Of a stretch of 64,000 bases of DNA, positions 45,572 through 48,977 are shown in pieces. A model generated the notes under the pieces. It made no database searches. It was not told the origin of the DNA and was given only the letters and a program-made list of their open reading frames with translations. Positions within the stretch are counted from its first letter, which is position 1, and each line of letters opens with the position of its first letter. The DNA lies in the NCBI GenBank assembly GCA_009840445.1, contig VXNS01000008.1:2715-66714 (forward strand), given 5' to 3'. This DNA is from Synechococcus sp. SB0662_bin_14 (lineage in GTDB: Bacteria > Cyanobacteriota > Cyanobacteriia > PCC-6307 > Cyanobiaceae). A program made the position numbers and the translations under genes.

Positions 45572-46675
45572 ATGACCGCACCCCTATTCGAGCGCATCCT
45601 GCCGTTGATCAACGCCCTGGAGCGCCCCTGGCTCTGGCTGATTGGCGTCGGGGTGGTGCTGGGGCTGGCCATGGCCCTGCTGGTCCAGCAGGTGCGCAAC
45701 TGCCTCCGGGTCGAGGAACGTCAGCTTCCCTGGGACATTCTGCTGATTCGCGCCGCCGGCCTCAGTCTGGGGTTGGTGCTGGCCAATCTTCTGGCGGCGC
45801 CCTTACTGCTGCTGCCCTTACCGGAGTCATGGCAACCGGTCAAACCCGTTGCCCTGGTGCTGGCCAACCTGGTGCTGGGGTTGGCTGGTCTCGTTGTGGG
45901 ACAGTTGCGGGGGCAAGCCCTGCGCCGCCTTCTGGGGGCCACCAGCAGTGAAACCTTGCTGCTGGAAGAGGGCCTGGTGCAGCGCTCCGCCCCCAAAATC
46001 CTTGACACCAGCGCCGCGATTGACGGGCGCATCGGGGCGCTTCTGGACTCCGGTCTGCTGGAGGGTCAAGTGATCATCCCCCAGGTGGTGCTGGAGGAGT
46101 TGCAAACCCTGGCGGACTCCGGGAAAGGGGAAAAACGCAGCCGCGGCAGGCGGGGATTGGACAATCTGTCCGCCCTGCGCCGTGACTACGGTCGCCGCAT
46201 CGTCACCAACAGCACCAGCTACGACGGCGAGGCCGTGGACGAGAAACTCCTGCAACTCACCGGCGACGCCAGCGGCATCCTCATCACCACGGACTACACC
46301 CTGGCCCAGGTGGGGCGTCTGCGCAACATCCAGGTGCTCAGCTTGAGTGAACTGGTGGTGGCCCTGCGGCCCGAAGCGCAGCCGGGGGATCAATTCACCC
46401 TGAAGCTGGTGCGCCAGGGCAAGGAACCGGGACAGGCCATCGCCTACCTGGAGGACGGCACCATGGTGGTGGTGGATAACGCCAAAGCGCTCATTGGCCA
46501 GTCAAGAAACGTGACCATCACCGGCGCCCTGCAAACCAATTCCGGCCGCATGGTGTTCGGCCAACTCAGCCCCGGGGCGGAATCTCCAGGGGCAAGCCAG
46601 CCTCCCCCCCGGTCTGGGAATCGGGGGCACCGCAAAGAGCCGCAAAGAGCCGCAAAGAAAGGTGACCAGACATAG
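45572..46675 (+). CDS. PIN/TRAM domain membrane protein
   Basis: LDTSAAIDGRI, KRSRGRRGLD and GKEPGQAIAYLEDGTMVVV motifs. Confidence 0.93.
   Translation: MTAPLFERILPLINALERPWLWLIGVGVVLGLAMALLVQQVRNCLRVEERQLPWDILLIRAAGLSLGLVLANLLAAPLLLLPLPESWQPVKPVALVLANLVLGLAGLVVGQLRGQALRRLLGATSSETLLLEEGLVQRSAPKILDTSAAIDGRIGALLDSGLLEGQVIIPQVVLEELQTLADSGKGEKRSRGRRGLDNLSALRRDYGRRIVTNSTSYDGEAVDEKLLQLTGDASGILITTDYTLAQVGRLRNIQVLSLSELVVALRPEAQPGDQFTLKLVRQGKEPGQAIAYLEDGTMVVVDNAKALIGQSRNVTITGALQTNSGRMVFGQLSPGAESPGASQPPPRSGNRGHRKEPQRAAKKGDQT
46630..46658 (+). repeat. 10-bp tandem repeat (CCGCAAAGAG) x~3 in the 3' end of the PIN/TRAM gene
   Basis: Seen directly in the sequence. Confidence 0.85.
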
Positions 46676-46864
46676 GACAACCTTCCCTACTGGATGCCCT
46701 CGCACCATGGGAAAGTCAGCCGTGGAGTGGGTTTGCGTGGGCCAGCAGACTGAACAGCGATTTTCCCAGGTTCCTGTTGCGACAACCATAAAGACTCAAG
46801 ACAGAAGGCCCGCAGCGGCGCGCCGGGTCTTCCGCTCATGGGATCTGCGTAGCAATTATCAGAT

Positions 46865-47902
46865 TTAGCTTTTATCCCTTGAAGATATAAATATATTCTC
46901 ACGATGCCATTTTAAGTATTCTAAATGCTTATTAATATCATTGACATGATCAAAGCTGATAGAATTACTATATGGACCAATTTTATCTAAATCTTCAATA
47001 ATATGCCTTGAAGGATGTAAGGTACCATCCTGATTAAAAGTTATCAATCCTTGATCAAATGCAGCGTCCCAAGAAGCGGAAAGAAGCAGACAATTATCTG
47101 GATCTAATCTAATATCCTCAAATTTAGCCCAAGGCTTTATATGAGAAGCTCTTAGTAATTTTGGATTTTTTATACCTGTAAGAGAGCATTGTTCTCGACT
47201 TTTTATAAGATACTCTCTAAGGACATCTTGCCCTATACGTCTTTCTACTATTATCTTTCTTTCTTCTTCATCTTCAGCTAATTTCCCAATTTTACTCTTA
47301 TAATCACTTAACAATAGCCCCTTATCTTTCTCAGGTTTACTACGGATACTAGTATCAGCCTTATTAGTATCTTCTGATTTCGATTCTTCAATTACCTGTT
47401 CAGTGCCAGGCAAATCATTATTTCTTCTAATATAAATCTCTTCTAATTCTAAAATAGTAAGACCATTGACTTTATGATTCCATTCTCGAATTCCGGTAGT
47501 ACTTGTACATAAAATAACGGATGAAGCCTGGGTAGGACTACTAAAACCACAGTTTTCTACCAGCTTAAGGAAATTTCCTTCTTGAATTAAATGACCTTTT
47601 TGTTTAAGTTCGTCTATTTTTTTCATATAAGGCTTAAATCTCCTAGGATAATCTGGATTTCCTCTAATCTTATCTTCAAAGGAATCCTCGAATTTTGCTT
47701 CTTTTATGACTACGAATTCATCCTTTGGATTCTGTCCTTGTGAGAAAGGTTTATGCGGACAATAATCACTGACTGGATTATTAGATGGGTTTTCATGCGG
47801 ATAAAACCCCCTGACTGGATTTGTATGCCCTCTCCGTCTAAGGTAAAATTCCTCTCCTCTTATAGAATCAATAAAATCAGGATTAACAACGTGCCTAGGC
47901 AT
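46865..47902 (-). CDS. HNH endonuclease with N-terminal DUF4357/RAMA-like domain
   Basis: FSSPTQASSVILCTSTTGIREW resembles the DUF4357 consensus; RIGQDVLR...CSLTGI...RASHIKPW...NCLLLSASWDAAFDQGLITF is an HNH domain; very AT-rich. Confidence 0.8.
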   Translation of the reverse strand: MPRHVVNPDFIDSIRGEEFYLRRRGHTNPVRGFYPHENPSNNPVSDYCPHKPFSQGQNPKDEFVVIKEAKFEDSFEDKIRGNPDYPRRFKPYMKKIDELKQKGHLIQEGNFLKLVENCGFSSPTQASSVILCTSTTGIREWNHKVNGLTILELEEIYIRRNNDLPGTEQVIEESKSEDTNKADTSIRSKPEKDKGLLLSDYKSKIGKLAEDEEERKIIVERRIGQDVLREYLIKSREQCSLTGIKNPKLLRASHIKPWAKFEDIRLDPDNCLLLSASWDAAFDQGLITFNQDGTLHPSRHIIEDLDKIGPYSNSISFDHVNDINKHLEYLKWHRENIFISSRDKS

Positions 47903-47929
47903 AACGAAAGACCATAGTAAAAGATTACA

Positions 47930-48061
47930 GGGCACCTCGAAAAATTGCCATCCCCCCGCACGGGAAAGCTTGCTGGCCTACGAGAAATCCCGCTAAAACT
48001 GACTTTCTCATGGTGATACGGCAGCCCTCCAGAGGGCTTTGTCCGATTTTTCGAGGTATCC
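47930..48061. mobile_element. MITE-like element, 132 bp
   Basis: Ends GGGCACCTCGAAAAATTG and (reverse complement) GGATACCTCGAAAAATCG match 15/18 with a 12-bp perfect core; TACA direct repeat at 47926-47929 and 48062-48065. Confidence 0.75.
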
Positions 48062-48269
48062 TACATTTATCGCAAATCCTTTCATTAGTCAATAAGTATG
48101 AATACTTATGGGACTTCACCAAACAACTGTACGCTCTTTGCCCAACTCAGCAGCCCCAGCGGGGAGCCTCCCACCGTCGCACGGGAGAACCCACCCCAAC
48201 CCCGCCAGCACCATGAGTGCCCCTCAACTGGCTAGGCTACCTGCTACGGCCCAGACGAGCAAAAGCACG

Positions 48270-48977
48270 ATGCCCCGAGGAGTCACCACTTCCATCCCCC
48301 AGGCCATCTCCACCGCCTATGAGACGGCGGAGACCAGTGTGCTGCGAACACCGCCGCCCGACCTCCCCTCCCTGATGCTGCGGGAGCGCATCATCTATCT
48401 GGGCTTGCCCCTCTTTTCAGACGACCAGGTGAAACAGCAACTGGGGGTGGACGTGACCGAACTGATCATTGCCCAGTTGCTCTATCTGGAGTTCGACAAT
48501 CCCGACAAGCCCATTTTCTTCTACATCAACTCCACCGGCACAAGCTGGTACTCGGGCGAGGCGGTTGGTTTCGAGACGGAGGCCTTTGCCGTTTGCGACA
48601 CCCTCCGCTACGTGAGGCCACCGGTTCACACCATCTGCATCGGCCAGGCCATGGGCACGGCCGCCATGATTCTTTCCGCCGGCGCCAAGGGGTATCGGGC
48701 TGCCTTGCCCCACGCCTCCGTCGTTCTCCACCAGCCCCGCAGCGGCGCCCGGGGCCAGGCCAGCGACATCCGGATTCGTGCCCAGGAAGTGCTGCACAAC
48801 AAGCGCACCATGCTGAAGATTCTGGCCGCCAACACCGGCCACACCGTGGAGAAGTTGGCCCGGGATTCCGACCGCATGACCTATATGACCGCAGAAGACG
48901 CCAAGGAGTACGGTCTGATTGACCGGGTGCTCACCAGTAGAAAGGAGTTGCCCGCAGCGCCACCGCCAACACCTTGA
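48270..48977 (+). CDS. clpR: ClpR (non-catalytic ClpP-like subunit)
   Basis: [18 protein letters not shown] with the ClpR-type insertion; YINSTG; precedes clpP. Start is uncertain. Confidence 0.85.

Follow-up and report, generated by a model that had tools for sequence, protein, structure and literature searches.

Among enzymes of solved structure, the only sequence relative of the nuclease considered here is VcaM4I (6yex), whose active site consists of H224, N241, D250 and D254 (a general-base histidine, a structural asparagine and two metal-ligand aspartates); alanine swaps at these positions impair the enzyme, and its nuclease core is non-specific and becomes toxic when the inhibitory linker is removed (PMC7897488). 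HphI, BbrI and other ordinary type II enzymes also belong to the HNH_2 family, and therefore the nuclease family alone does not imply modification dependence. Concerning the DNA-reading part, RAMA was listed on HNH and other restriction nucleases in 2016, the RAMA-HNH fusion included, and its tie to adenine methylases was drawn from comparative genomics (PMC4738411). The RAMA domains of CcrM and MPND touch the DNA backbone non-specifically, and 6mA left MPND binding unchanged (PMC9963953). GIY-YIG-RAMA and RAMA-Mrr fusions were named as future targets in 2024, and a 2025 review mentions ongoing work on RAMA-HNH endonucleases; in the literature searched, no published results were found for RAMA-HNH or other RAMA/DUF4357-nuclease fusions.

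The gene described here lies in a stretch of 64,000 nucleotides of a Synechococcus contig (hereafter the window) and encodes a protein of 345 aa on the minus strand. The first-pass annotation had presented it as a lone, very AT-rich gene situated between a TRAM gene and clpR, and this description holds: the reading frame has a GC content of about 34% in a genome of 0.62 GC and 2.16 Mb (the profile runs at 0.33-0.39 along the gene vs 0.63-0.66 on either side), it is alone in its islet, with a TRAM-domain gene on one flank and a Clp protease paralogue on the other. The start codon is the ATG at 47902, as the closest homologue opens MPRRSVDPAFIDSLRGKKF and the window protein opens MPRHVVNPDFIDSIRGEEF; an alternative GTG start at 47935 was discarded because it falls within a repeat element and because the homologues begin at the ATG. 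Both sequence motifs quoted in the annotation were recovered: residues 120-141 read FSSPTQASSVILCTSTTGIREW and residues 221-258 read RRIGQDVLREYL...RASHIKPW. The host genome belongs to the Candidatus Synechococcus spongiarum group of sponge symbionts, and is reduced.

Same-genus relatives align to the window up to 46635 and resume at about 48134-48190, and the gene therefore sits in an islet of about 1.5 kb at a hot spot. At the same TRAM-clpR site, one congener (G008) has 64 nt, and another (G009) carries an unrelated AT-rich gene encoding a 308-aa coiled-coil protein. The features of the locus are collected in Table 1.

Table 1. Features of the RAMA/DUF4357-HNH locus (window coordinates; those of the gene include the stop codon).
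Feature	Position	Strand	Basis
RAMA/DUF4357-HNH gene	46865..47902	-	ORF and translation, GC profile, homologue N-termini
N-terminal RAMA/DUF4357-type unit, residues 10-155	47438..47875	-	Repeat-unit alignment, PDC-S14 profiles, AlphaFold
DUF4357 core, residues 98-148, F120-S-S-P-T-x-A126 and W141	47459..47611	-	Pfam PF14267
Clade-specific 27-residue loop, residues 35-61, PHENPSNNPVSDYCPHKPFSQGQNPKD	47720..47800	-	Gap in all other units
Variable charged linker, residues 156-215	47258..47437	-	Low pLDDT, low identity
HNH_2 (beta-beta-alpha-Me) nuclease domain, residues 216-340	46883..47257	-	Pfam, PADLOC, VcaM4I matches
Catalytic H254	47141-47143	-	Aligned to VcaM4I H224
Catalytic N270	47093-47095	-	Aligned to VcaM4I N241
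Catalytic D279	47066-47068	-	Aligned to VcaM4I D250
Catalytic D283	47054-47056	-	Aligned to VcaM4I D254
Variable islet between TRAM gene and clpR	46636..48135	.	Alignment limits of same-genus relatives
MITE-like repeat, 17-nt terminal inverted repeats	47929..48062	.	Inverted repeat; 19 genome copies
Partial inverted copy of MITE-like repeat	46672..46752	.	56-nt inverted repeat, 71% complementary

To judge from sequence comparison, the C-terminal domain belongs to the VcaM4I/TagI subfamily of beta-beta-alpha-Me nucleases and is intact. It matches HNH_2 (PF13391, residues 239-290) with 40 bits against a Pfam cut-off of 21, and a PADLOC HNH model matches the nuclease half at E 9e-30, while PADLOC type II models also match the protein. 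VcaM4I is reached at E 4e-15 from the single sequence and, with a profile of 15 family members, at E 4e-32, the match spanning the whole C-terminal domain including the helix ahead of the core. Foldseek on the full-length model ranked VcaM4I first and also listed TagI; the nuclease half of this model, built from 15 sequences, is of low confidence, and it served for this ranking only. When positions are counted along the HMMER alignment to VcaM4I, the four catalytic residues are retained (Table 1), and they are invariant in 15 homologues of the family alignment, for which reason the predicted nuclease is very probably active. The assignment to an HNH domain of the RxGQ...ASHIKPW type was thus well founded, and the likeness to SRA-HNH and EVE-HNH type IV enzymes pointed out at the same time proves to be real homology.

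The N-terminal half required a more careful reading. DUF4357 (PF14267) matches the whole protein at E 8e-8 with 32.5 bits, and the N-domain alone at E 3e-8 with 34 bits, both below the Pfam gathering cut-off of 38.4; the homologue of the congener G007 likewise falls short of it (31.3 bits), and precomputed matches to both PF14267 and PF13391 exist on 12 full-length homologues. An exhaustive search of residues 1-160 against 1.84 billion representatives returned 26 proteins, and the best matches were proteins made of 3-6 DUF4357 repeats (E down to 8e-27), some fused to a Swt1-like HEPN domain and others with weak, sub-threshold STAND-NTPase signals. Residues 10-158 align end to end with these repeat units of about 110 aa, the 27-residue loop excepted; all 36 aligned units match PF14267, with the A and the W of the motif F-x-S-P-S-x-A-A...G...W invariant, and the family alignment shows no variation at F120 or A126. 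In addition, three PADLOC PDC-S14 profiles match residues 54-156 by their C-terminal part (E down to 1e-11). Homology of the N-domain to DUF4357 is, on these alignments, solid, and the domain can be described as a single unit of RAMA/DUF4357 type.

As for RAMA itself (PF18755), Pfam gave the window protein no direct match even at E values as high as 1. In several repeat proteins, nevertheless, the models of RAMA and DUF4357 cover the same residues, DUF4357 positions 1-54 corresponding to about 46-99 of RAMA; one of these proteins (P0104) reaches 60.5 bits for RAMA, whose cut-off is 35.2, and RAMA matches at E <0.01 were obtained in 5 of 36 units. Because the models overlap in relatives while the window protein itself has no direct match, the tie of the predicted N-domain to RAMA is only transitive. 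Structural comparison gave no further link: in a Foldseek search of the N-domain model (AlphaFold, pLDDT 85.7, pTM 0.79) against the PDB, the best E was 0.76 and neither CcrM (6PBD) nor MPND (7YDT) was among the best 50, nothing significant was found among viral structures, and no RAMA entry was found when the 36-unit profile was searched against PDB sequences. The layout proposed by the first-pass annotation, a RAMA/DUF4357-like N-domain followed by a linker and an HNH domain, is therefore sustained by the DUF4357 match, the homology to repeat proteins and the HNH_2 match; of the two candidate families, DUF4357 was found at a significant though sub-cut-off score, and RAMA was not found directly.

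Two parts of the protein stand out by their variability. The loop lies between beta strands of the N-domain, where model confidence falls to 52-62, and it is confined to the window protein and its nearest relatives (P0002, P0089 and the G007 copy). The linker is of variable length and disordered (pLDDT <50 at residues 164-191), with 8-30% identity among homologues; it had been called acidic, and it is indeed present and highly charged, but only slightly acidic, with 15 D+E vs 12 K+R. Outside the linker, identity among homologues is 20-30% in the N-domain vs 46-49% in the nuclease (22% vs 61% for P0005). The N-domain has diverged at about double the rate of the nuclease, a pattern to be expected of a module that sets specificity.

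The complete architecture has few carriers: of 301 species in the family, only the host genome and one congener have it, and among GTDB representatives it occurs only on a Synechococcus spongiarum contig and in one Prochlorococcaceae MAG; about 12 metagenomic clusters also carry it, all in picocyanobacteria-like contexts, and the closest full-length relative lies on a Candidatus Synechococcus spongiarum contig. The same HNH domain with other N-termini is widespread. Two further HNH_2 genes occur in the host genome: a second DUF4357-HNH allele, AT-rich and of another clade, that adjoins dxr and is frameshifted, and a GC-rich gene with an unrelated N-domain. These two genes fit the turnover known from defence genes, and several of the related loci sit in defence or transposon islands, beside transposases or defence genes.

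No methylase occurs within 6 kb of the gene in the window, the nearest being an N6_N4 methylase ORF of native GC at 54149-55114, 6.2 kb away, in agreement with the annotation, which had seen no adjacent methylase. Nor was a dedicated methylase present at any of the approximately 10 related loci examined (the window, G000:C85, G007, and the loci of P0002, P0006, P0011, P0013, P0014, P0017, P0010 and P0005), a setting that fits the lone-gene context of a type IV enzyme.

Taken together, we favour, with a confidence somewhat above even, a solitary, horizontally acquired endonuclease of restriction type, with the build of a type IV (modification-dependent) sensor-HNH enzyme. This reading is the best one because it accounts for a VcaM4I-type nuclease, a defence-associated DNA-binding module, the lack of a partner methylase, and gain, loss and diversification at hot spots. 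DUF4357 has been placed on GmrSD, GIY-YIG, T5orf172 and McrB proteins, and the RAMA/DUF4357 module recurs on GmrSD, McrB, GIY-YIG (PDC-S14), T5orf172 and HEPN defence proteins. The N-domain would dock on incoming DNA marked by something that host DNA lacks, most probably a modified base, and specificity is likely to reside in this fast-evolving domain and in the loop peculiar to the clade. By analogy with VcaM4I, a non-specific nuclease dimer would be held closed by the helices ahead of its HNH core and would open only upon engagement of the sensor, and the cut would fall near, yet outside, the sensed site.

Which modification might be read? The annotation had proposed dependence on m6A from the RAMA-like domain. 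Under this more specific alternative, RAMA/DUF4357 would read N6-methyladenine and the enzyme would cut m6A-bearing phage DNA in a context that the host leaves unmethylated. The name RAMA goes back to the link of the domain with adenine methylases and the restriction enzymes that accompany them (PMC4738411), and specialists list RAMA fusions as candidate 6mA sensors; one pull-down study reported a preference of MPND for 6mA DNA, and winged-helix fusions to HNH, GIY-YIG or PD-(D/E)XK nucleases do sense m6A and cut near Gm6ATC (PMC11037411). Against this, 6mA had no effect on MPND binding and, in CcrM and MPND alike, the only DNA contacts of RAMA are with the backbone (PMC9963953), the window protein has neither a direct RAMA Pfam match nor a fold match, and two homologues adjoin a gene for an adenine-type methylase (NPPW motif) with no apparent conflict.

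The host itself also weighs against such a reader. Its genome carries at least 15 candidate N6A/N4C methylase genes (2 of the D12 class, 9 N6_N4 and at least 4 strong N6_Mtase), a count that agrees with the methylase richness reported for the sponge-symbiont Synechococcus group, and much m6A is probably present in host DNA. A nuclease with a general dependence on m6A would be toxic to its own host, so that only a strongly context-specific m6A reader would be viable there. On balance, m6A reading is unlikely, though less so than any of the alternatives that follow, and the step from RAMA homology to m6A dependence is unsupported, as it goes back to comparative genomics, MPND being indifferent to 6mA and the window protein having no direct RAMA match.

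A classical restriction endonuclease blocked by methylation, with its protective methylase encoded elsewhere and RAMA acting as a mere DNA clamp, is the next reading to consider, and we regard it as improbable. Its appeal lies in the type II members of HNH_2 and the PADLOC type II matches mentioned above, in the description of most RAMA-fused nucleases as restriction enzymes of N6A-modifying restriction-modification systems (PMC4738411), and in a host whose methylase genes, at least 15 in number, would offer candidates for the unlinked partner. Two related loci do have a methylase gene as neighbour. In G007 and in the P0002 genome, the homologue lies at a dxr-linked site next to a methylase from an NspV-type restriction-modification operon; the methylase and the NspV-type enzyme form an operon in the P0002 genome, while in G007 the methylase survives and only the last 45 codons of the enzyme are left, 70 nt from the homologue. 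This methylase was rejected as the cognate partner, because it belongs with the NspV-type enzyme and both of these genes are absent from the host genome. Beyond this case, no homologue has a dedicated adjacent methylase, and about 30 GC points separate the window gene from every nearby methylase, so that it did not arrive as a member of a restriction-modification pair; no observation ties it to any particular methylase of the host. A 150-aa N-domain from a family of non-specific DNA binders would, moreover, be a poor reader of unmodified sequence.

The gene could also be a selfish or decaying passenger, either a homing-like HNH gene moving between intergenic hot spots or the cargo of MITE-like repeats, as might be suspected of an isolated AT-rich gene in a variable intergenic region, with related alleles at further hot spots (the dxr site is one) and a frameshifted paralogue in the same genome. 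It is also bracketed by inverted copies of a MITE-like repeat: a 134-nt element, present in 19 copies in the genome and in more across the genus, lies 27 nt upstream of the start codon, and a partial inverted copy, which matches repeat loci in relatives and other copies in the genome, lies past the stop codon. The repeat had no match in Rfam. MITE-like repeats were nonetheless rejected as the general vehicle of the gene, the G007, P0002 and C85 alleles having no flanking repeat. A passenger is, in addition, hard to reconcile with an intact reading frame that retains all catalytic residues, with a nuclease subfamily (HNH_2/VcaM4I) that is not a homing-endonuclease family, or with distant GC-rich homologues that show long residence in picocyanobacterial genomes, and no intron, intein or phage context was found for the gene; this reading is very improbable. 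An origin from phages or plasmids was rejected on separate grounds, as records there carry the HNH domain and never the whole architecture.

Least credible of all is an abortive-infection effector, that is, a non-specific nuclease freed by a phage cue other than modification, with RAMA as a general DNA tether, since the toxicity of the VcaM4I core once its linker is gone (PMC7897488), the non-specific DNA binding of RAMA (PMC9963953) and the presence of DUF4357 repeats on a HEPN protein and on proteins with weak, sub-threshold STAND-NTPase signals (abortive-type families) are set against an islet with no sensor or partner gene, and against the fact that all characterised enzymes of this nuclease subfamily and architecture are direct restriction enzymes.

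The gene adds an example to a class that is known computationally, and it brings no new principle. RAMA/DUF4357 domains were predicted as m6A readers in 2016, but two solved examples bind non-specifically, and the MPND structures contradict the reading claim of 2016. Cleavage reports what an N-domain recognises, and a small, single-polypeptide RAMA-HNH enzyme with an intact VcaM4I-type nuclease is therefore a direct assay of whether these domains read modifications. It is doubtful that the RAMA/DUF4357 unit of this protein truly senses a modified adenine, be it m6A or a hypermodified base of phages, in a context-selective way, with the loop and the fast-evolving surface providing safety for the host; should it be so, this 345-aa enzyme would become the first enzymatic proof that RAMA reads DNA modification. 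The gene also illustrates how single-gene defence islets come and go at fixed hot spots in a reduced symbiont genome that is already full of methylases.

Compared with known systems, the N-domain resembles the RAMA domains of CcrM (6PBD) and MPND (7YDT/7YDW) as a small alpha+beta DNA-binding module, with homology through the overlap of Pfam models; those domains are, however, embedded in a methylase or in a deubiquitinase-like protein, and Foldseek did not connect them to the N-domain model. The PADLOC candidate phage-defence system PDC-S14, also a single-gene nuclease, shares the DUF4357 part (residues 54-156 of the window protein), but its order is GIY-YIG followed by a C-terminal DUF4357, whereas here the reader comes first and the nuclease is HNH, with no GIY-YIG match in Pfam.

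Closer in layout are the RAMA-nuclease fusions predicted by Iyer, Zhang and Aravind in 2016, among which RAMA+HNH has the same architecture (PMC4738411); the window protein differs from them in matching DUF4357 and not RAMA directly, in its 27-residue loop, and in having no linked adenine methylase. The winged-helix fusion endonucleases (HtuIII, Ahi29725I and FcyTI among others) follow the same plan of a small reader joined to interchangeable nuclease folds, and are solitary type IV enzymes that cleave near the sensed site; their reader, for which sensing of Gm6ATC is demonstrated (PMC11037411), is of another fold than the predicted reader of the window protein. The closest counterparts remain VcaM4I (EVE-HNH) and TagI (SRA-HNH, 6ghs), in which an N-terminal sensor, linker helices and a C-terminal HNH_2 nuclease follow one another in the same order (PMC7897488). 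Their genes are solitary like the one described here, and the VcaM4I nuclease is homologous at the E value given above, with an identical H/N/D/D catalytic set. The difference lies in the sensor, a base-flipping EVE or SRA domain of the PUA superfamily in these two enzymes, and a RAMA/DUF4357 unit of unrelated fold in the window protein.

A MITE-like repeat of 134 nt, which lies on either side of the gene for the candidate DUF4357/RAMA-HNH nuclease, is present in 19 copies in the source genome (G000), with further copies in congeners. Of the 19 copies, 13 have a 500-nt stretch with a GC content of 45% or lower no more than 1.5 kb away; for random positions, the proportion is 10.6% (p 2.6e-9, Mann-Whitney test). 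Small AT-rich genes on contigs C36 and C2 are likewise flanked by pairs of the repeat, with copies approximately 1 kb apart. The AT-rich islets are either the target of the repeat or its travelling companions.

At the nuclease locus, three tandem copies of CCGCAAAGAG sit directly at the left boundary of the variable region, at the extreme end of the TRAM-domain gene, and the final 13 codons of this gene are unlike those in relatives. On the other side, the real start of clpR is probably the ATG at 48273 (MPRGVTTSI...), which matches relatives, and the 55 codons listed upstream of it fall within or beside the variable islet. In the congener G009, the same hot spot harbors an unrelated AT-rich gene encoding a protein of 308 aa, whose N-terminal part is a coiled-coil and whose C-terminal part has no convincing Pfam match.

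Features of the hot spot, the related nuclease and methylase loci, and the MITE-like repeat
Feature	Location	Strand
Tandem repeat, 3 copies of CCGCAAAGAG	window 46630-46659	
MITE-like repeat (134 nt)	window 47929-48062	
MITE-like repeat, second site	window 46672-46752	
MITE-like repeat, other copies in G000	contigs C2, C6, C36, C45, C57, C71, C83 and others	
clpR ORF as listed	window 48108-48977	
N6_N4 methylase gene	window 54149-55114	
Second DUF4357-HNH gene	G000:C85:2308-3200	minus
Third HNH_2 nuclease gene, same subfamily	G000:C58:61133-61981	plus
AT-rich gene at TRAM-clpR hot spot of congener	L013 (G009:C40) 1465-2391	minus
NspV-type restriction enzyme/NPPW methylase	L046 (G007:C11) 104-1742	
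NspV-type restriction enzyme/NPPW methylase	L020 5086-7267	

The source genome carries two other genes of the HNH_2 type. The second DUF4357-HNH gene (34% GC) stands alone between dxr and an oxidoreductase gene, and belongs to a clade other than that of the main gene, with 46% identity to the homologue P0006; a frameshift splits its N-terminal beta-strand part from the remainder. The third, with a GC content of 66%, encodes an N-terminal domain of approximately 150 residues without a match to any Pfam family, and may represent another sensor-HNH enzyme.

The methylase load of G000 is very high for a genome of 2.16 Mb. N6_N4_Mtase accounts for nine matches, one of them the gene in the window at 54149-55114, and the D12 class for two; N6_Mtase has at least four strong matches and approximately nine weaker ones, the latter in ORFs 900-1700 aa long. 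In one genome, an HNH homologue has as its neighbor an operon in which an NspV-type restriction enzyme is paired with its NPPW methylase. In the congener G007, the restriction enzyme is reduced to its last 45 codons and the methylase is intact: this locus is a restriction-modification system decaying to an orphan methylase, adjoining an HNH islet.

Among the proteins matched by the N-terminal domain of the main protein, P0088, P0090-P0096, P0099 and P0104 (550-990 aa) are tandem arrays of DUF4357/RAMA units, three to six per protein. In P0095, a Swt1-like HEPN domain also scores above the Pfam cut-off. Weak STAND-NTPase matches occur in P0092 and P0104, with no single domain passing by itself. 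This tandem architecture is apparently undescribed.
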